Below are positions 3,574 to 37,930 of a stretch of 43,098 bases of DNA, one piece after another. Below the pieces are notes generated by a model, which saw only the letters and a program-made list of their open reading frames with translations, was not told where the DNA came from and did no database searches. The first letter of the stretch is position 1; each line of letters begins with the position of its first letter. Origin of the DNA: a virus. Lineage: Duplodnaviria; Heunggongvirae; Uroviricota; Caudoviricetes. The stretch lies in the IMG/VR virus record IMGVR_UViG_2541047775_000007; one strand, given 5' to 3'. The position numbers and the translations under genes are program-made.

Positions 3574-4199
3574 ACCGCCAGCACCTTACTGGCATTGATG
3601 TATCGCGCGCGCCGGTCGTCGATGCCGTTCCGGCCACCATTGATAATCAGAGTTACACGTGCAATATCGCCGGTATACTTCATGCATCCTTTGCTGGCAA
3701 AGAACCACGCCGCGCTACGAGCCGCGTATTCGTCCTGCGCCAGCAGTTCAGGACTCTCCAGCAGGTCAACCTTAAGACCGTTTCCACAGTCACGATAGTT
3801 ATTCAAACCGGTAACCTGGATAAGCCCGCGCCCACGGTAGTTCCAGCCATCACCAGGGGCATTGTTCCCCATGCGTTTGCTGTACACCAGATTGGCAATC
3901 GCTCTCTGGCGCTCAAGTGGCAATGGTGGTTCGCCTGCACGTCGCCCCAATGCGTTGGCCTGTCCCTGAGTGAGACGCCCAGCCCGAACAAAGTTAGCCA
4001 GTCCGCTGACGCTGTAGTTGAAATTCTCCTGCAACCGGGTGAAGCCTCCAGACTCATGCCCGACCTGAGCAATAAACATAGCCTGATCTTCTGGTTTGCT
4101 GATACCAAACTCTTTCATCGCAGAAGTTATATGCGAGAACCAGCGTGCGGCCAGTGCCTCGCTGATACCAGCAGCTCGCTGGAATTGTTTAATCTCCAT
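3570..4199 (-). CDS. endolysin, glycoside hydrolase family 19 (chitinase-like) type
   Basis: Motifs [20 protein letters not shown] are characteristic of GH19 phage endolysins; no N-terminal hydrophobic SAR segment. Confidence 0.88.
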
Positions 4200-5090: not shown

Positions 5091-5387
5091 TCAAATAGAG
5101 AAATAAACACAAAAACAAAAAACAACAGGAACAGCAAAATCCAACAGACTTCCCACATCCCACACGCGTGGATCAAAACCTCCCCACCACGGCATGTTGA
5201 TACGTTTCCCTTTCCCAAACTTTTCTATCCAGCGATATTCTGCCTGGGTGTGTTCACGCGCAATGAAGAACGTACAACCGGCTATCGCACCGTAAGCCCA
5301 GTTTCCGGTAAAAATACCAACCAGTACCTGAGCCACAAAAGCGCAAAGCGAGTGAAGAAATGGAGTGACATCAATGCTCTTAATCAT
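5091..5387 (-). CDS. small membrane protein (98 aa), translationally coupled to the tailspike gene
   Basis: Start codon overlaps tailspike stop (ATGA); 2-3 hydrophobic segments. Confidence 0.5.
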   Translation of the reverse strand: MIKSIDVTPFLHSLCAFVAQVLVGIFTGNWAYGAIAGCTFFIAREHTQAEYRWIEKFGKGKRINMPWWGGFDPRVWDVGSLLDFAVPVVFCFCVYFSI

Positions 5388-7573
5388 GAAACTTCCCCAT
5401 TGGTTGAAAATATGGCTCCTCCAACGCCAAGTGTATTTCGTGTTGTGCTCAACCTCAGAGGGCTGGAGTCAGAATTAGAATATCCTGTAGCAGAAATAAA
5501 AGATCCTCCACTAATAGTCAACTGCGGAACATCGGCTATATCTGAATAAGTTCTGTCAGCAACAGTATTATTTATAGCCACATATGATCCAAAAAAACTT
5601 CTTATTGTTTGGTTTTTAACTTTACTTCCTTCAATGGTTATCCTACTACCACAGTCGGCAATAAATCCTGAATCTGCATCCAGCGTTGCATTCATAAAAG
5701 AAGCTTCAGATCTCTCTACATCAATCCATCTAATATCTTTTGTGGGATTTGCACCAAATACATGACAAATATTAGAGTTAAACCTTACACCATCTTGGAG
5801 GTGCATTAATTTTTTTATATCTGTACCCCATAGCCTTGGAAAATTAACAGATGCTCCTGCATGGCAATCAAATCCCAGCTCAGCCCCTGAGATATCTACA
5901 GCCTTTCCTGAAATAACAGCACCAGTGTCTGCATTAACGGCTGTTCCACAATTGCGCATATCATTACCAGCAACATCAACGCAACCCGCACCATCAATAC
6001 GCACACCAAGTGCACATCCATAAAAACCTTTTTCAATATTTGGTTCAAGGACTTTACCACTTGTTTCTGCATCACTTTCTTCAACGTCATGTCGTCTTGC
6101 ATCAACATATGCTGTATGAATGCAGGTTAATCCACGATATGAGCAATGTATAGTTTTATGGTCGCGTATATTAACATTTGAACCATCTCTTACATTCCAT
6201 CCTATATAACAATAGCTTGCACTTGACCCCTGAAAATCTGCTTTAACATTATAAATACAATTAACTGACGCAACCGTACTCTCTGTGCACCGTTCAAACT
6301 TGCTTACAGGCATTGATGCCTTGACATTATTTACCAGTTGCAGGGAAGAGTATCTGCTATAAGAAAAATCACATACGTAATACCCTTCTGGCATATATGC
6401 AGCAACACTTTCCTCATCAGGAGCACATCCGGTATGATATGCACTAATTTTTGCACCAAAACTACCATGAATTCCAACGTAGAACTTTCGAGCACCTGAA
6501 TACGGATAGAAATTAAGTTCAGCTTTTTGAGTTACAATAAATGCACAAACATCGCTATCATCTCTATTTTCTTCGATCTGAATAGCAAATACAGGACTTT
6601 TTGCTGCATCGCAAATGTAAAATAAATACTTGTATTCGTAATACGTTCTAACGATTTTAGTAAACAAACGAGTGTCAGAGAAAACCACTGAGTCTTCTGA
6701 TGTTATTTTAATCCAAGACAAATCAACACCTGAACTGAATTCAATTTGATAGTTGATAATATGCCCGGTCTTAATTCTTATTTCGCAGAAAGCATTACCA
6801 CCATCCCACATAGGTCTCATTGACTGGGCTGCAATGATTGCATCTTTGAGTGTAGGGTAATCACCCCATTCGCCAACAGTAATAACAAAAGTATAATATG
6901 AGTTAAAAACAGCGGCATTTTTGCCTTTGGATATCAACTCCTTAATCATAAAAATATTATCTTCGTAATCACAAGGAGAAATTATATCCCTCATTTTGCT
7001 TTGAAATGTTCGTTGTCTTGCCCCGCTTCCTGACGGTATAAACCAACCAAAACCACCAACAACCCCGGCGATTGCAGCATCGACATAATTACGCATTGAG
7101 CGATTATTTACAGCATCCTGCTCAAGTGATGGATCTGCAAGGTTAGAAATTCTGTTTTGCTTTGCATCGTAATATTTTGCAAGCAGAGAGGGCTTCATCA
7201 ATGCACGTCTGAACCACCCAAAACATTGCTGGATCAGCATCGTCAGGTAGTCAAAGGCATCTTCATGCACTTCGGGGAAAAATTTTCCCTGATTGCGAAG
7301 GTCTGTCTCCTGCACTACATCAAGCACACGATCTATCGTAATTCGCCATCCAGTAGCAAGCGGAGACGGAAGAACCACAGAACCGCCACTATAAGTGCCC
7401 GCCCCAGTTACCGTATAACCGGTATCCAGGACCAATTCTGTTACGTTCCCGTTCAGGTCAGACACCTGAACAACCAGGTCTGATTTTCTGAAAATTCGAA
7501 AAGTATACGGAAACGATGTCGTAACGCCGTTACCGGTGTATTCGTTGTGGTCAACTTCGGTTGAGACCGTCAT
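5384..7573 (-). CDS. tailspike / tail fibre with conserved N-terminal virion-attachment domain and probable beta-helix receptor-binding/depolymerase body (729 aa)
   Basis: N-terminus MTVSTEVDHNEYTGNGVTTSFPYTFRIFRKSDLVV matches the conserved podovirus tail-fibre/tailspike N-domain motif; AT-rich body with many Cys and Asn/Gly repeats; RBS ggag before ATG. Confidence 0.8.
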   Translation of the reverse strand: MTVSTEVDHNEYTGNGVTTSFPYTFRIFRKSDLVVQVSDLNGNVTELVLDTGYTVTGAGTYSGGSVVLPSPLATGWRITIDRVLDVVQETDLRNQGKFFPEVHEDAFDYLTMLIQQCFGWFRRALMKPSLLAKYYDAKQNRISNLADPSLEQDAVNNRSMRNYVDAAIAGVVGGFGWFIPSGSGARQRTFQSKMRDIISPCDYEDNIFMIKELISKGKNAAVFNSYYTFVITVGEWGDYPTLKDAIIAAQSMRPMWDGGNAFCEIRIKTGHIINYQIEFSSGVDLSWIKITSEDSVVFSDTRLFTKIVRTYYEYKYLFYICDAAKSPVFAIQIEENRDDSDVCAFIVTQKAELNFYPYSGARKFYVGIHGSFGAKISAYHTGCAPDEESVAAYMPEGYYVCDFSYSRYSSLQLVNNVKASMPVSKFERCTESTVASVNCIYNVKADFQGSSASYCYIGWNVRDGSNVNIRDHKTIHCSYRGLTCIHTAYVDARRHDVEESDAETSGKVLEPNIEKGFYGCALGVRIDGAGCVDVAGNDMRNCGTAVNADTGAVISGKAVDISGAELGFDCHAGASVNFPRLWGTDIKKLMHLQDGVRFNSNICHVFGANPTKDIRWIDVERSEASFMNATLDADSGFIADCGSRITIEGSKVKNQTIRSFFGSYVAINNTVADRTYSDIADVPQLTISGGSFISATGYSNSDSSPLRLSTTRNTLGVGGAIFSTNGEVS

Positions 7574-7677: not shown

Positions 7678-7692
7678 TTACCTTTCAGGTAA
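7678..7692. promoter_or_regulatory. operator-like palindrome TTACCTTTCAGGTAA (motif A)
   Basis: Perfect 5-bp inverted repeat with 5-bp spacer; one member of a family of at least 13 near-identical sites. Confidence 0.6.
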
Positions 7693-7729: not shown

Positions 7730-7749
7730 TACTGTATAAATATACAGTT
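7730..7749. promoter_or_regulatory. LexA (SOS) box TACTGTATAAATATACAGTT
   Basis: CTGT-N8-ACAG core at 7732-7747 with AT-rich spacer, 18/20 match to the E. coli LexA consensus; 20 bp upstream of the start codon at 7769. Confidence 0.75.
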
Positions 7750-7768: not shown

Positions 7769-8026
7769 ATGCAGCGGTATCACTATCCACTGGAAGACGG
7801 ATTTACCGAAAGGATTCACACGCCGGGAGGCGTCAGGTCACTGGTGGAGGGATCGCACTTGATGAAATTACTCCGGGATCTCGATAAGGATGGATTTAAT
7901 GTCGATGGCCCACTTGCCGAACTGACTGCACTGATTAACTACGTTACCAGCTCACAGATGTCTATGCGGGATCTGCAAACACATCTCGACTATTGTGCCG
8001 AACAATTACGAAAACAAACCCGGTAA
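7769..8026 (+). CDS. small antirepressor-like protein (85 aa), paralog of the C-terminal domain of the 9177..9833 antirepressor
   Basis: RBS ggag 8 nt before ATG; sequence aligns with the Ant C-terminus (shared GV..L.E.S.LM.LL..L..DG..V.G..AELT....Y......RD.QTH..Y); LexA box immediately upstream. Confidence 0.65.
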   Translation: MQRYHYPLEDGFTERIHTPGGVRSLVEGSHLMKLLRDLDKDGFNVDGPLAELTALINYVTSSQMSMRDLQTHLDYCAEQLRKQTR

Positions 8027-8030
8027 ATTT

Positions 8031-8052
8031 AAAGGCCGCAAGAGCGGCCTAT
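8031..8052. terminator. bidirectional intrinsic terminator (aggccgc-aaga-gcggcct) between convergent genes
   Basis: 7-bp GC stem flanked by T/A-rich runs on both sides; nearly identical hairpin recurs at 11282-11299. Confidence 0.55.
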
Positions 8053-8777
8053 CGTTTCGCTTTGTGCTCGTCCCAGCACGTTTTGCACCATGCCATTAAG
8101 CCATCCGCATTTTGATTATTAGGGTAAAAGCTTGTTCGTTTTCTGCGGACATTACAAATTGGGCACCACTTCATATGGCGTGTATTCTTTGGGCCATCGA
8201 GACACCTTGCACACCACTTAGTCAATCCATCTGGATTTTTTGACGATTTCCTGAATTTTTCATATGGTAGGTTTATTCTGCATCGCAAGCACTGCTTGCT
8301 ACCACTTGAAACTCTGTTAGCTGATTCTTCTTTTGGCGGCGATACAGAAGGTATTCTTGCTGGCTCTGATACTGCCTGAGGTGCTTTTTTAGATGACTGA
8401 GACGATATGTCATCACCAGGGAATCTTCCATGATATGCCGGACGCATTGACACTCCAGGTGGAAGCTCAGCTGTAAACGGCTTTGGCTGAATCAGTTGCC
8501 TCTCTTTTGCTAACTCCTGCTGTTTATAATATGTCTGGATTACCGCACTATCATAAGCAGGAGGTGCGGAAATATTAGGCGCATTACCTCCAGTTTTTTG
8601 AAACTGAGTAGAGGTGTGTTCTATCACCTGTGTACGATTAATCGTTATCTCCCCATCTTCGGTCTTTATCGTTTTGTTATGATTAACGACCGTACGATCA
8701 GAGATCTTAGTCTTGTTCTGGTTGATAACGTAAATAATCACCGCAACCACACCAACAACTATCCAGAAAACTTCCAT
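8049..8777 (-). CDS. membrane-anchored protein with C-terminal tandem CxxC zinc-ribbon-like motifs (242 aa)
   Basis: RBS gaggaaaag before ATG; N-terminal TM helix; long low-complexity linker; C-terminus CLRC...NPDGLTKWCARC...WCPIC...NADGLMAWCKTC (duplicated DGL..WC..C unit). Confidence 0.7.
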   Translation of the reverse strand: MEVFWIVVGVVAVIIYVINQNKTKISDRTVVNHNKTIKTEDGEITINRTQVIEHTSTQFQKTGGNAPNISAPPAYDSAVIQTYYKQQELAKERQLIQPKPFTAELPPGVSMRPAYHGRFPGDDISSQSSKKAPQAVSEPARIPSVSPPKEESANRVSSGSKQCLRCRINLPYEKFRKSSKNPDGLTKWCARCLDGPKNTRHMKWCPICNVRRKRTSFYPNNQNADGLMAWCKTCWDEHKAKR

Positions 8778-8797: not shown

Positions 8798-8812
8798 TTA
8801 CCTTAAAGGTAA
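8798..8812. promoter_or_regulatory. operator-like palindrome TTACCTTAAAGGTAA (motif A)
   Basis: Perfect palindrome 21 bp upstream of the minus-strand start at 8777. Confidence 0.6.
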
Positions 8813-8861
8813 TATCTTGCTTTCAGGTGATCAAGCGTTAAACGCAATCAACCAAATACGG

Positions 8862-8905
8862 TTGATTTTAATATTTCTTCGCGTTTATCATTACCTTTGC
8901 GGTAA
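8862..8905 (+). promoter_or_regulatory. candidate promoter (TTGATT -35) with overlapping operator TTACCTTTGCGGTAA (8891-8905)
   Basis: -35-like hexamer followed by a motif A palindrome; lies about 270 bp upstream of the antirepressor gene. Confidence 0.45.
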
Positions 8906-8942
8906 ATTTACATTGCACTCCTCTTGTGCCATAGTAATCGGG

Positions 8943-9018
8943 CACTGGCAAAATCCAGTGCCGGGATTGGTCTCCCGGATTACTAAGTGGCGCATACCAC
9001 GCCAGACGTGGTTTTTTT
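8943..9018 (+). promoter_or_regulatory. structured leader: three consecutive hairpins ending in an intrinsic terminator (ccacg-ccaga-cgtgg plus T7)
   Basis: Hairpins cactgg/ccagtg (8943-8960), ccggga/tcccgg (8961-8978), and terminator 8996-9018; no credible ORF. Confidence 0.45.
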
Positions 9019-9176
9019 ATGCGTATAGCACAGTCATGCCAGAATTATGGTGGGCTGAATGGGGGTCCGAAAGGACGCCGGTACCACTTAGGCCGGTAAG
9101 ACCAACTCCGTTCAGTTCACCACCATCTGATTGGTCTCAGCGGTGGTGATGTAATTCGCTAAGTGGAGACGCCATC

Positions 9177-9833
9177 ATGAACGCTCAACTCATCCCCGTA
9201 TTCAACGGCACTATATCTAACGAAACAGCCCTACTTTGTAATGCCCGCGATCTGCACACTTTTTTAGGTGTTAAAAAGGTGTTTGCAGCATGGATTACAA
9301 ATCGCATATCAGAATACGAATTCATTGAAAATCAAGACTATATTTTGCTTTCCAATTTGGGAAAGCAAACATCTGGTAGAGGCGGCCACAACCGCAAAGA
9401 GTACCACCTCACCCTTGATACAGCCAAAGAGCTGGCGATGGTCGAGCGTAACGAAAAAGGTCGCCAGGTGCGACGCTACTTCATTGAATGCGAGAAACGT
9501 TTAAGACAACAAGAAACAAAAGTGGAGAAGGTCTTGTCAGGCTTCATGCCCGCCATTATGGAGGCGATCAAGCTGGAAGACAAAAAAGAATACAGCGCCC
9601 CACTGAAGCCCGGCTACCGCAGCCTGATTCATTCTCCGTCTGGTGTTCTCGGACTGACGGAGAACTCACTGCTGATGAATCTGCTGAACCAGTTACAGGA
9701 AGACGGGCACGACGTATCGGGCGCGGCGGCGGAGCTGACCACCATGTTCTGCTACATCGTCGGTGTGAGCAAATGCCTGCGTGATATCCAGACGCACGCG
9801 GAGTACATCAACGACAAGGCAGGGTTCTTCTGA
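9177..9833 (+). CDS. phage antirepressor, AntA/AntB-type N-terminal domain plus C-terminal domain shared with the 7769..8026 protein (218 aa)
   Basis: N-terminus MNAQLIPVFNG...KVFAAWITNRISEYEFIENQDYIL...RYFIECEKRL resembles AntA/AntB antirepressor family; intrinsic terminator at 9843-9865 follows. Confidence 0.7.
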   Translation: MNAQLIPVFNGTISNETALLCNARDLHTFLGVKKVFAAWITNRISEYEFIENQDYILLSNLGKQTSGRGGHNRKEYHLTLDTAKELAMVERNEKGRQVRRYFIECEKRLRQQETKVEKVLSGFMPAIMEAIKLEDKKEYSAPLKPGYRSLIHSPSGVLGLTENSLLMNLLNQLQEDGHDVSGAAAELTTMFCYIVGVSKCLRDIQTHAEYINDKAGFF

Positions 9834-9906: not shown

Positions 9907-9921
9907 TTACCTTAAAGGTAA
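9907..9921. promoter_or_regulatory. operator-like palindrome TTACCTTAAAGGTAA (motif A)
   Basis: Identical to the 8798 site; 27 bp upstream of the start at 9948. Confidence 0.6.
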
Positions 9922-27847: not shown

Positions 27848-27884
27848 TTGACATTTAACGCACAAATTATTACCTTTAAGGTAA
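27848..27884 (+). promoter_or_regulatory. promoter-like TTGACA (27848-27853) with operator TTACCTTTAAGGTAA (27870-27884)
   Basis: Consensus -35 hexamer followed by a motif A palindrome, pointing toward the tRNA island. Confidence 0.5.
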
Positions 27885-28206: not shown

Positions 28207-28283
28207 GTGGCATTAGCTCAGTTGGACAGAGCAACCGCCTTCTAAGCGGTTGGTCGCAGGTTCGAATCCTGCATGCCACGCCA
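28207..28283 (+). tRNA. tRNA-Arg (anticodon TCT), phage-encoded
   Basis: Manual cloverleaf: acceptor gtggcat/atgccac, D-arm gctc...gagc, anticodon stem accgc/gcggt with loop CTTCTAA, T-arm gcagg-ttcgaat-cctgc, discriminator G plus encoded CCA. Confidence 0.85.
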
Positions 28284-30419: not shown

Positions 30420-31012
30420 TGATTGCCATCCTGACGTTCTTTCAGTCTCTTCCTGGCTGCCGCTATGCGATCAGCAATTGTCACATTCACATTAACATCC
30501 AGGCGTTCTTTGAACGCGTTGACGTCGACGTGCTTACCAATCAGTTCGAGGTTCTTCACCTTGTCAGGCCATTTAATTTTTTTGAGGATTGTCTCTATCG
30601 AATCCTCGTCCATGTTCATGATGGTAGATGACAGATCAAAGCCACTAAGCGTAGTGCGCCAGATTTTCGGCCACTCGCGGATTGGCTTAAGGCTTCCATC
30701 GTCGTTGAGGATATCAATCACGTCCATCTGGTCGATCTCCACCAGGCGCATGAGAACGTAATCAGCACTGACGCGCATTCGTTTGTTGCGCTCCTCCATC
30801 AACTCGGCAATCCGTTTTTGAATGCGTTCATCGCGCATCATGACACTGGCTTTAACTGCCGCTGTATTTGGGGAGAATCCTGCGTTAATCGCAGCCTGAC
30901 TCTGGTTTTCAGGCGTTTTGATGTATGACTGGCAATAAGCCTCCTGCATTGCTGTGAGCGGCTTAAATTGCGTTGATTTGCGTTTATAGGTTTTAGGTTC
31001 AGCAGGCATCAT
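30416..31012 (-). CDS. terminase small subunit (about 198 aa; ORF-track start at 31090 probably over-extended)
   Basis: Overlaps terL start; basic N-terminus MMPAEPKTYKRK; motifs recalled from small terminase families. Confidence 0.6.
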   Translation of the reverse strand: MMPAEPKTYKRKSTQFKPLTAMQEAYCQSYIKTPENQSQAAINAGFSPNTAAVKASVMMRDERIQKRIAELMEERNKRMRVSADYVLMRLVEIDQMDVIDILNDDGSLKPIREWPKIWRTTLSGFDLSSTIMNMDEDSIETILKKIKWPDKVKNLELIGKHVDVNAFKERLDVNVNVTIADRIAAARKRLKERQDGNQ

Positions 31013-31054
31013 AACCACCCTGGTAATTGTTACCGTCGTGGTAATAGTAACATG

Positions 31055-34748: not shown

Positions 34749-34825
34749 TTACCTCTAAGGTAATTAAAAACCACATAAGACACGAAATCAATAGAGTTTA
34801 GAATATTTTGTTACCCAACAGGTAA
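34749..34825. promoter_or_regulatory. two operator palindromes TTACCTCTAAGGTAA (34749-34763) and TTACCCAACAGGTAA (34811-34825)
   Basis: Motif A sites in the intergenic region between the P-like gene and the DUF1064 gene; first site overlaps the RBS. Confidence 0.55.
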
Positions 34826-36756: not shown

Positions 36757-36771
36757 TTACCTTTGAGGTAC
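36757..36771. promoter_or_regulatory. operator-like site TTACCTTTGAGGTAC (motif A, one mismatch)
   Basis: Palindrome next to the motif B palindrome aaccatatttggtt (36738-36751). Confidence 0.5.
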
Positions 36772-37093: not shown

Positions 37094-37156
37094 TCACCTA
37101 TAAGGTAACAAAAATCAAGGATAGTTACCCATGAGGTGCATTTACCTGTTGGGTAA
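37094..37156. promoter_or_regulatory. immunity-region operator cluster: TCACCTATAAGGTAA (37094-37108), TTACCCATGAGGTGC (37125-37139), TTACCTGTTGGGTAA (37142-37156)
   Basis: Three motif A sites between divergent Cro-like and repressor genes (OR1-3-like arrangement). Confidence 0.65.
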
Positions 37157-37211: not shown

Positions 37212-37796
37212 ATGAAAAGTATCCAGGACGTCCGCAGGCAAAATCTCAACGACTTGATCGACCGTGAATTCAATGGTGTTCAGACGCGGATGGCTGAAAA
37301 ACTTGGAACTCAGGCAAATCTGGTAAACCGCTGGGCTCTTGGCAAGAAGGTTATCGGCGACCAGGTTGCGCGAAAAATTGAAGCTGCCGCCAATAAACCC
37401 CGTAACTGGCTTGATATCGATCGCTCGCTTTCTCAGGAAGGTTTTCAGCCTGTCGGACCAAGCGACATTGGTCAACTGGCGGCTCACAACCTGAAACGCT
37501 GGATGAGCGAAAGCCGCGACCTTTCAACGCAGGGAAAACTTCACCGCGCATCCGGCGTCGCCCAGGTAACAATCAGTCGCCTGTTAAACAATGAGGTCAG
37601 CGTTTCCATTTCCACCCTGGAGAATGTTGCATCCGCATTCGGGCGTCACGGCTATGAATTACTGATTCACCCGCACGACCCTGCGACCATCAACTATGAC
37701 CGCTCGCGCTACGCATTGTTACCCGAAACCGAGAAAGCAAAGATCGAAAGTTACATTGAATTTGTCATCAACCAGAACGAAAAAAACAAACAATAA
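37212..37796 (+). CDS. phage repressor with two tandem HTH (XRE-type) domains and no recognisable LexA-like autocleavage domain (194 aa)
   Basis: Two segments matching the Q..LA...G.....VSR HTH pattern; no S24 peptidase motif seen by eye; divergent from Cro-like gene. Confidence 0.65.
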   Translation: MKSIQDVRRQNLNDLIDREFNGVQTRMAEKLGTQANLVNRWALGKKVIGDQVARKIEAAANKPRNWLDIDRSLSQEGFQPVGPSDIGQLAAHNLKRWMSESRDLSTQGKLHRASGVAQVTISRLLNNEVSVSISTLENVASAFGRHGYELLIHPHDPATINYDRSRYALLPETEKAKIESYIEFVINQNEKNKQ

Positions 37797-37853: not shown

Positions 37854-37930
37854 TTACCTAACGGGTAATTTTTTTAACTCATATCTATTGACATCAAACC
37901 AGATACGCATAATTATTACCTCAACGGTAA
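37854..37930 (+). promoter_or_regulatory. PL-like promoter region: operator TTACCTAACGGGTAA (37854-37868), TTGACA (37888-37893), operator TTACCTCAACGGTAA (37916-37930)
   Basis: Consensus -35 flanked by two motif A palindromes upstream of the plus-strand early operon. Confidence 0.55.

Follow-up and report, generated by a model that had tools for sequence, protein, structure and literature searches.

The leader of the antirepressor gene ant in the phage analyzed here is very probably an RNA immunity module that controls Ant, of the immI type known from P1/P7 c4 and here in its widespread IsrK-C4 form. The window, by which we mean the whole stretch of 43,098 nucleotides under analysis, belongs to an epsilon15/phiV10-like (Uetakevirus) phage of E. 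coli. Its closest relative in our phage collection is phiv142-3, with 99% identity over positions 8885-9200, and a tailspike-like gene encoded on the minus strand (5384-7573) lies upstream of the leader. When the whole window was scanned with Rfam at the curated thresholds, we obtained four matches, two of which fall inside the leader. These two, isrK and C4, stand in tandem on the + strand, both 5' of the AntA-family gene at 9177-9833.

The IsrK-C4 switch is already known: it is covered by two curated Rfam families and has been described in P1/P7, P4, N15, Gifsy-1, and APSE. Barquist et al. 2013 (PMC3632133) named the arrangement the 'IsrK-C4 immunity system' and related it to seqA/CI of P4 as well as to systems of similar structure in P1, P7, and N15. 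As the mechanism is inherited from P1, P4, N15, and Gifsy-1, its recognition in this phage resolves no open question. It does give a probable function to an unannotated leader of 235 nt and adds the epsilon15/phiV10-like phages to those that have a secondary RNA immunity system in the style of P1. The leader has matches of at least 80% identity in 465 of 5,426 complete E. coli genomes, with only 'antirepressor' annotated beneath them. This annotation can be corrected, as several records carry spurious coding sequences over the RNAs. The sequences of the a and b boxes described below could also be used to predict anti-immunity cross-reactivity among prophages. The practical value of both uses is modest.

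The IsrK domain, the C4 element, and ant

The regulated gene (9177-9833, + strand) encodes an antirepressor of 218 aa. Its product matches Pfam AntA (PF08346, E = 6e-26), in agreement with the AntA type proposed in the initial annotation, and PHROG 377, 'anti-repressor Ant' (E = 2e-66). The gene is preceded by a GGAG of its own, at a distance of 8 nt from the ATG.

The IsrK / c4-a1b1 domain occupies 8942-9019 on the + strand. The Rfam model isrK (RF01394) matches there at 8942-9018 (+) over its entire length (model positions 1-77 of 77), with 67.7 bits for a gathering cut-off of 50 bits. The domain is made of hairpin 1 (8942-8961), hairpin 2 (8962-8977), and a terminator hairpin (8996-9012) followed by a U7 tract (9013-9019). 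Three consecutive hairpins ending in a stem and a T7 tract had been described at this place in the initial annotation, and this is precisely the consensus structure of isrK, in which the third hairpin is an intrinsic terminator. The terminator scan detects an intrinsic terminator at 8996-9012 with its U tract, and compensatory changes occur in hairpin 1. The two 5' hairpins and the Rho-independent terminator are accompanied by a predicted promoter of their own. Rfam match and covariation together establish the predicted structure of the IsrK-like RNA. Another Rfam family, c4-a1b1 (RF03163), gives 39.9 bits at 8929-8981, below its cut-off of 46.7 bits, and overlaps the isrK match. For comparison, the a1/b1 region of P1, which also has a terminator-like hairpin, reaches 51 bits on the c4-a1b1 model and only a weak 35 bits on isrK. 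The overlapping matches and the P1 scores indicate that RF03163 and RF01394 describe one element.

The homologue of the C4 antisense RNA lies at 9043-9127 (+ strand), where Rfam C4 (RF01695) matches in full (model positions 1-87 of 87) with 61.2 bits. The gathering cut-off of this family is 45 bits, and the c4 RNA of P1 scores 68.8 bits on the same model. A long closing stem of 17 bp (9048-9064 with 9106-9122) surrounds hairpin 1 (9065-9076) and hairpin 2 (9077-9097), and compensatory changes are found in both the stem and hairpin 1. This closing stem is tRNA-like and ends in ...CACCA. The fold of 9043-9127 has an energy of -41.2 kcal/mol (z = -5.5), far better than expected by chance. RNAalifold identified 13 doubly changed pairs and recovered IsrK hairpins 1 and 2, the C4 closing stem, and C4 hairpin 1.

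The initial annotation had proposed c4-like control in ant's own leader. This idea is borne out by the C4 and isrK matches above their cut-offs, by a spacing of the boxes like that of P1, and by the covariation of the boxes. The annotation had, however, taken the upstream terminated RNA for c4 and treated the actual homologue as downstream leader segments, the stable structure at 9043-9127 having gone unrecognized. The c4 homologue is the element at 9043-9127, and the terminated three-hairpin RNA is its IsrK / c4-a1b1 partner. No match to Rfam sar, nor to any other additional Rfam family, was found in the region at E-values up to 1, and no minus-strand promoter was detected in 9100-9250, where an antisense RNA of the P22 sar type was sought.

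Complementary boxes and their covariation

Six short boxes on the + strand connect the two RNAs to each other and to ant; we labeled them in their 5'-to-3' order on the mRNA, as in the P1 GenBank record. In the IsrK domain, box a1 (UUGGUCU, 8967-8973) is in the loop of hairpin 2, and box b1 (CUAAGUGG, 8983-8990) is on the single strand between hairpin 2 and the terminator. In C4, box b' (CCACUUAG, 9084-9091), of which b1 is the exact complement, lies in the loop of hairpin 2, and box a' (AGACCAA, 9099-9105) lies in the single-stranded bulge. Downstream, box a2 (UUGGUCU, 9131-9137) begins 3 nt past the end of C4, the position that it has in P1. Box b2 (CUAAGUGG, 9159-9166) extends into GGAG (9165-9168), the Shine-Dalgarno sequence of ant, and ends 10 nt before the ATG. 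The pairing of a' with a2 covers 7 bp and that of b' with b2 covers 8 bp. As in the P1 type, C4 thus has complementary boxes at the next ribosome-binding site and a second target pair, a1/b1, upstream of itself.

In terms of DNA, GATTGGTCTC occurs twice and CTAAGTGG / CCACTTAG three times, all within 200 nt. The 8-mer CTAAGTGG has five copies in the window when both strands are counted, against 0.86 expected, and three of these are within 184 nt. The complementary 8-mers and the repeat pointed out in the initial annotation do exist, although three of its four motif coordinates were off by 4-19 nt. CTAAGTGG is at 8983-8990 instead of 8979-8986, and CCACTTAG at 9084-9091 instead of 9093-9100. 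The first copy of GATTGGTCTC was correctly placed at 8965-8974, and the second is at 9129-9138, not at 9148-9157. One more copy of CTAAGTGG, which lies on the Shine-Dalgarno sequence of ant at 9159-9166, had been missed, and it is the functionally decisive target.

To compare the module across phages, we used 15 loci from annotated phages (Uetakevirus, lambdoid Stx phages, Klebsiella, Yersinia, Hafnia, and APSE). C4 is present in all 15, and isrK is above threshold in 14, where it lies 22-25 nt upstream of C4 and before an antirepressor-type gene. A pattern scan of viral contigs gave 120 further loci. There were 102 unique modules, of which 82 could be parsed. Among these 82 we distinguished 24 b' loops and 6 a' types, which occur in 29 combinations. 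A second scan of viral contigs with a looser C4 pattern returned mostly chance matches, and left 13 usable modules, a few of them doubtful, after a structural filter.

The boxes covary among these phages, and self is clearly separated from non-self. An exact complement of at least 7 nt to the module's own b' is found upstream in 62% of the types and downstream in 86%, against 0.7% and 1.2%, respectively, for non-self combinations. When G-U pairs are allowed, the b':b1 duplex averages -11.1 kcal/mol for self and -4.4 kcal/mol for non-self over the 24 types, and the b':b2 duplex -12.1 and -5.9 kcal/mol. The self target is the best of the 24 for 19 of the 24 b types. As for the a boxes, in an alignment of 24 modules both the a1:a' and the a':a2 pairings are complete (168 of 168 cells each), with compensatory changes in 4 of 7 pairs in each case, and none of 500 shuffles reached the score of either. 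The same structures slid by 1-3 columns are only 16-50% paired. In the loci whose downstream start codon can be assigned clearly, b2 includes or directly adjoins the Shine-Dalgarno sequence, at a distance of 7-11 nt from the ATG. At the level of sequence, the complementarity, geometry, and covariation of a'/b' with a2/b2 are therefore well established.

Besides the window, only phiv142-3 and one further locus have its combination of b CUAAGUGG and a UUGGUCU. Elsewhere, b type CUAAGUGG is found with a = UUGGCGU, and a type UUGGUCU with other b types. Since b and a types come in differing combinations, the two boxes reassort. The b box of phiV10 is CUAAAAGG.

Promoter, operator, and predicted regulation

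The promoter scan places a sigma-70 promoter of the module at 8907-8935 on the + strand, with the -35 hexamer TTTACA (8907-8912), a 17-nt spacer, and an extended -10, TGcCATAGT (-10 at 8930-8935). A sigma-70-like pair ends 5-7 nt 5' of isrK in most related loci, and the promoter-like pair is kept even in lambdoid loci with unrelated upstream sequence. Transcription would start near 8942, hence the leader would measure around 235 nt and the terminated RNA around 77 nt. The values of about 270 bp and about 100 nt in the initial annotation implied a less well supported promoter, TTGATT (8862) with TATCAT (8891); the comparison with related loci favors the TTTACA/TGcCATAGT pair over it.

An operator-like palindrome, TTACCTTTGCGGTAA, spans 8891-8905 and adjoins the -35 hexamer. 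Its pattern, TTACC-N5-GGTAA, has 14 copies in the window (11 of them exact), against 0.69 expected, and the half-sites are conserved around a variable center in related Uetakevirus loci. Among the copies are pairs flanking a repressor candidate at 37212-37796, a protein of 194 aa with two helix-turn-helix domains, in which no peptidase domain was detected. The recurrence of the operator, including around the repressor candidate, suggests that the ant module is also under the main repressor, which would act at the putative operator 8891-8905. Direct SOS control of the isrK promoter was considered and ruled out, as there is no LexA box there. Elsewhere in the window, a near-consensus LexA box (7730-7749) stands in front of an ORF of 85 aa, whose product has 43% identity to the C-terminal domain of Ant.

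The regulation that we propose would proceed as follows. Transcription from the promoter at 8907-8935, with the phage repressor operator adjoining its -35, would begin near 8942, and most transcripts would end at the intrinsic terminator (9012-9019), giving a 77-nt IsrK-like RNA with a1 exposed in the loop of a hairpin and b1 single-stranded. Read-through transcripts would contain C4, which would be excised, its 5' end being generated by RNase P if processing follows that of P1. We found no separate C4 promoter between 9019 and 9043 in the promoter scan, so that C4 would be made only via read-through of the 7-U terminator, a point that counts against the model. By analogy with P1 (Citron and Schuster 1990, as cited in PMC7313666 and PMC8201110), boxes a' and b' of C4 would pair with a2 and b2. 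With b2 reaching into the Shine-Dalgarno sequence of ant, 10 nt ahead of the AUG, this would block translation of ant, in the lysogen as well as on an incoming homoimmune phage. The a1 and b1 boxes of IsrK would be rivals of a2 and b2 for the loops of C4, so that the short IsrK RNA, when in excess, would titrate C4 or refold the leader, and ant translation would be switched on, a release step modeled on Gifsy-1. The processing of C4, the C4:IsrK stoichiometry, and the effect on translation are all predicted here. On this reading, it is the a and b box sequences that determine immunity specificity.

The closest parallel is the immI region of P1/P7, laid out as Oc4, the P1c4/P2c4 promoters, a1 b1, c4 RNA, a2 b2, icd, and ant1/ant2. 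The P1 record gives the order Oc4 operator, promoter, a1, b1, c4, a2, b2, start codon, and the RNA elements of the window come in the same order. The spacing is also the same, with a1 and b1 7 nt apart, a terminator-like hairpin, a2 3 nt after c4, b2 22 nt beyond a2, and in P1 the icd ATG 10 nt after b2. In both phages an operator overlaps the promoter, the repressor concerned has many dispersed operators, and the product is an antirepressor; the P1 c4 promoter is under C1 as the ant module of the window would be under its main repressor. The boxes themselves differ, those of P1 being a UUGACAG and b GUUAGUG. The repressors and operators are unrelated (C1 versus a binder of TTACC-N5-GGTAA), and an epsilon15-like podovirus is compared with a P1-like plasmid prophage. 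A further difference is that the ribosome-binding site masked in P1 is that of icd, whose translation is needed for ant, whereas in the window it would be ant's own.

The second parallel is Salmonella Gifsy-1 (IsrK, STnc1160/orf45, anrP), where an isrK element with its promoter and intrinsic terminator is followed, on transcripts that read through, by a C4-like element and an antirepressor. Providing IsrK in trans increases translation of anrP by a factor of more than 100, and the leader has an A and a B conformer (Hershko-Shalev et al. 2016, PMC4825925). Folding the full leader of the window likewise gives two conformers within 3 kcal/mol of each other, one at -101.6 kcal/mol, with a1b1 paired in cis to a'b', and one at -98.7 kcal/mol, with C4 folded. 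Pairing between the middle part of IsrK and the C4 region, in near-isoenergetic conformers, is thus common to both. In the APSE phages of Hamiltonella (GenBank LR794147), isrK and C4 are already annotated upstream of a BRO-N gene. The tandem is identical, with complementary boxes 5' of the adjacent antirepressor-like gene; the boxes (a GUUUGAGAC, b CUAACAAGG) and the family of the downstream gene, BRO-N, differ from ours. In the APSE annotation a' denotes the hairpin loop and b' the bulge, opposite to the order of the P1 record.

Alternative readings and locus-specific pairings

According to PMC3632133, seqA and CI RNA of P4, and CB RNA of N15, are structural homologues of IsrK (seqA) and C4 (CI). 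As predicted for the window, a processed leader RNA pairs there both upstream and downstream of itself. In these phages the output is premature transcription termination, which controls the replication genes of P4 and, through CB RNA, the anti-immunity operon of N15. Transposed to the window, C4 on nascent a1/b1 would force termination at the IsrK terminator and shut down both C4 and ant, with blocking of the ribosome-binding site being secondary. Premature termination has been reported as the mode of action of P4 CI RNA (PMC4825925, PMC3632133), and constrained folding of the window is consistent with it: the equilibrium probability of the IsrK terminator hairpin is 0.03 with b1 free and 0.97 with b1 blocked, the low value being caused by an alternative helix (UGGCG/CGCCA plus GAUUAC/GUGGUU). 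The difference amounts to only 2.6 kcal/mol, however, and comes from equilibrium folding alone. The anti-terminator is also not conserved, since the probability with b1 free averages 0.82 over 28 box types and only around 5 of these types switch. Moreover, no terminator-like site was found on the + strand from 9019 to ant, the stretch where a P4-like site of the seqC type would act; the lack of a terminator after C4 argues against a purely P4-like output. With b2 placed precisely on the Shine-Dalgarno sequence in nearly all loci, and in the window as well, we regard control primarily by termination as possible but rather unlikely. A reading without any trans-acting RNA, in which the boxes serve alternative folds of a single transcript, would fit the lowest-energy fold of the whole leader, where a1/b1 pair with a'/b' in cis. 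It is quite improbable, as homologous elements are trans-acting both in Gifsy-1 (PMC4825925) and in P1/P7, whose heteroimmunity is determined by c4. Furthermore, the C4 fold, long closing stem included, is conserved, and the P1 member of the family is annotated as a discrete c4 RNA of 77 nt. The 24 b types and 6 a types, reassorted among modules, are what selection for specificity in trans would produce.

Two other readings invoke translation of the leader. In Gifsy-1, orf45 starts at the ATGGTGGG of C4, its stop overlaps the start of anrP, to which it is coupled, and the b2 box is at this orf45 end / anrP start (PMC4825925). A small ORF overlapping C4 could likewise be the real target in our phage, with ant translated only by coupling. 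The ATGGTGGG is conserved, the same frame is visible in L014, and the window has an alternative ORF of 37 codons at 9036-9149. Yet the frame opened by ATGGTGGG in the window (ATG GTG GGC TGA) closes after 3 codons. Across the 82 modules its length varies from 3 to more than 60 codons and its end point is not conserved. The ORF at 9036 ends 28 nt before the ant ATG, with no Shine-Dalgarno-like sequence seen upstream of it, and ant is preceded by its own GGAG. No icd-like ORF exists between 9128 and 9176 either. We thus consider such a coupled target very improbable: with neither an icd nor an orf45 equivalent, ant's own Shine-Dalgarno sequence is the target, and given that the upstream ORF of P1/Gifsy-1 is absent, the exact read-out may differ from theirs. 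The stretch could finally be protein-coding, as it has an open frame of 110 codons (8817-9149), called 'hypothetical protein' or 'Ash family protein' in some relatives, and several GenBank records annotate coding sequences over the homologous stretch. This frame has a TTG start inside the promoter region and spans the intrinsic terminator. The changes in sequence are RNA-compensatory instead of codon-like, and two Rfam structure models match at full length, so we give this reading hardly any credence. The coding interpretation, whether of 8817-9149 or of an orf45 equivalent, was rejected, given the early closure of the frame and its variable length.

The preferred reading, in which C4 masks the ant ribosome-binding site and IsrK relieves it, leaves room for locus-specific additions. 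A general C4-dependent terminator switch was tried and set aside: it holds in the window and fails for the family of 28 box types, which leaves it as a possibility for particular loci. The IsrK domain of the window and of a few other box types might still be a C4-sensing attenuator, in which free b1 and its flanks would sequester the 5' strand of the terminator and C4 bound to b1 would restore it. If so, transcriptional feedback would be added to the block of the ribosome-binding site.

The same proposal includes a switch of partners by a conserved box, GGUGGUGA (9142-9149, + strand), which is complementary to the 3' strand of C4 (9117-9124). The two could form an alternative hairpin, with a2 as part of its loop, that is incompatible with the C4 closing stem; this pairing is present in the folded leader structure. 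The motif GGTGGTG is found at most 40 nt downstream in 68 of the 82 modules. P1 and phiP27-type loci have matching changes on both sides of the pairing; in P1, CCUGCCACC faces GGUAGCAGG, and three positions differ from the window in a compensatory manner. RNAalifold also pairs the GGUGGUGA box with CAYYAU at the start codon, with only one-sided changes in support. The box could alternate between the ant start codon and the C4 3' strand, the second pairing presenting a2 in the loop of a hairpin, and this would couple C4 folding or processing to ant translation. The proposal of an attenuator together with a GGUGGUGA switch is doubtful; as far as we found, both are outside the published P1/Gifsy-1 models.

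A helix bracketing the terminator, formed by 8990-8995 with 9020-9025, shows individual compensatory variants among loci. In an out-of-register alignment it is 61% paired, with slid versions being equally good, and a per-locus comparison of duplexes gives a modest separation (-6.3 versus -4.2 kcal/mol).

Possible alternative pairings around IsrK, C4 and the ant start

On the 3' side of a2, one of the two boxes with which C4 would pair ahead of the antirepressor gene ant, lies a conserved box, GGUGGUGA (9142-9149), whose complement is found in the C4 closing stem, on its 3' strand (9117-9124). The resulting hairpin, which is outside the Rfam models, would hold a2 (9131-9137) in its loop and is mutually exclusive with the C4 fold. 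In P1 and in phiP27-type loci, the two sides of this pairing change in step.

GCGCAU (8990-8995) and AUGCGU (9020-9025) lie on either side of the IsrK terminator with its U tract and can pair solely in read-through RNA. Variants at individual loci elsewhere maintain this pair, as GCACAU/AUGUGU, GCGAUA/UAUCGU or GCGACAAU/AUUGUCGU. For the IsrK domain of the window (8978-9013), the fold of lowest energy is an alternative structure that uses bases adjacent to the b1 box, rather than the terminator; when b1 is blocked, the predicted probability of the terminator rises from 0.03 to 0.97. Across the family, this b1-dependent terminator switch is not conserved.

Otherwise unrelated ant genes have in common the motif CAYYATG at the start-codon context. 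RNAalifold pairs this motif (9173-9178) with the GUGGUG box at 9143-9148, leaving b2 and the Shine-Dalgarno sequence in the enclosed loop. The changes supporting this pairing are one-sided only (G-U to G-C).

Box combinations and annotation of the module

Among the loci L001-L135, whose modules are homologous to positions 8942-9180 of the window, 24 types of b' loop and 6 types of a' occur in 29 combinations, and the a/b pair of the window is rare. In these loci, a boxes and b boxes reassort independently of one another. Their combinations could provide a barcode for specificity classes of anti-immunity.

In several GenBank phage records, the stretch of the isrK-C4 RNAs is annotated as coding ("Ash family protein", "hypothetical protein") or carries a feature for protein similarity (L008, 988-1671; L013, 1131-1790; L009, 1339-1626; L003, 2599-2666). 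The covariation at the RNA level makes it probable that these features are annotated in error.

Putative dispersed operators, the probable repressor and a second antirepressor candidate

The window contains 14 copies of the palindrome TTACC-N5-GGTAA, 11 of them exact, when 0.69 would be expected. They are chiefly in intergenic or promoter DNA (7678-7692, 8798-8812, 8891-8905, 9907-9921, 27870-27884, 31012-31044, 34749-34825, 36757-36771, 37094-37156 and 37854-37930), and paired sites flank both a strong promoter (around 37889-37914) and a repressor-like gene. This set looks like the dispersed operators of the phage's main repressor, the counterpart in P1 being the C1 operators. The main repressor itself is probably the 194-aa protein encoded between the operator pairs (37212-37796, +), which has two helix-turn-helix regions and in which no S24 peptidase domain was detected. 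Since this candidate lacks a self-cleavage domain, induction would require an antirepressor.

A near-consensus LexA box, TACTGTATAAATATACAGTT (7730-7749), accompanied by a repressor operator, is found just upstream of an 85-aa ORF (7769-8026, +; PHROG 450, epsilon15 gp19-like). The C-terminal domain of Ant has 43% identity with this ORF (E 1e-20), and the related locus L001 has a matching arrangement at 3680-3975. The ORF is a candidate SOS-induced small antirepressor, distinct from the C4-controlled Ant.

Between this small gene and the isrK promoter is inserted a 242-aa gene (8049-8777, -; PHROG 6762) with its own operator (8798-8812). The C-terminus of its product is rich in Cys and bears a weak likeness to endonuclease VII and Lar-like proteins. 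In phiv142-3, the closest relative in the phage collection, this gene is missing; TL-2011b has a homologous stretch.

The phage also carries a tRNA-Arg (anticodon UCU; 28207-28283, +), around 330 nt downstream of the operator-like site at 27870. Upstream of the lysis genes, there is a very strong, full-length match to the Hfq-binding RNA STnc490 of Rfam (2778-2901, -), scoring 146 bits for a cut-off of 56.
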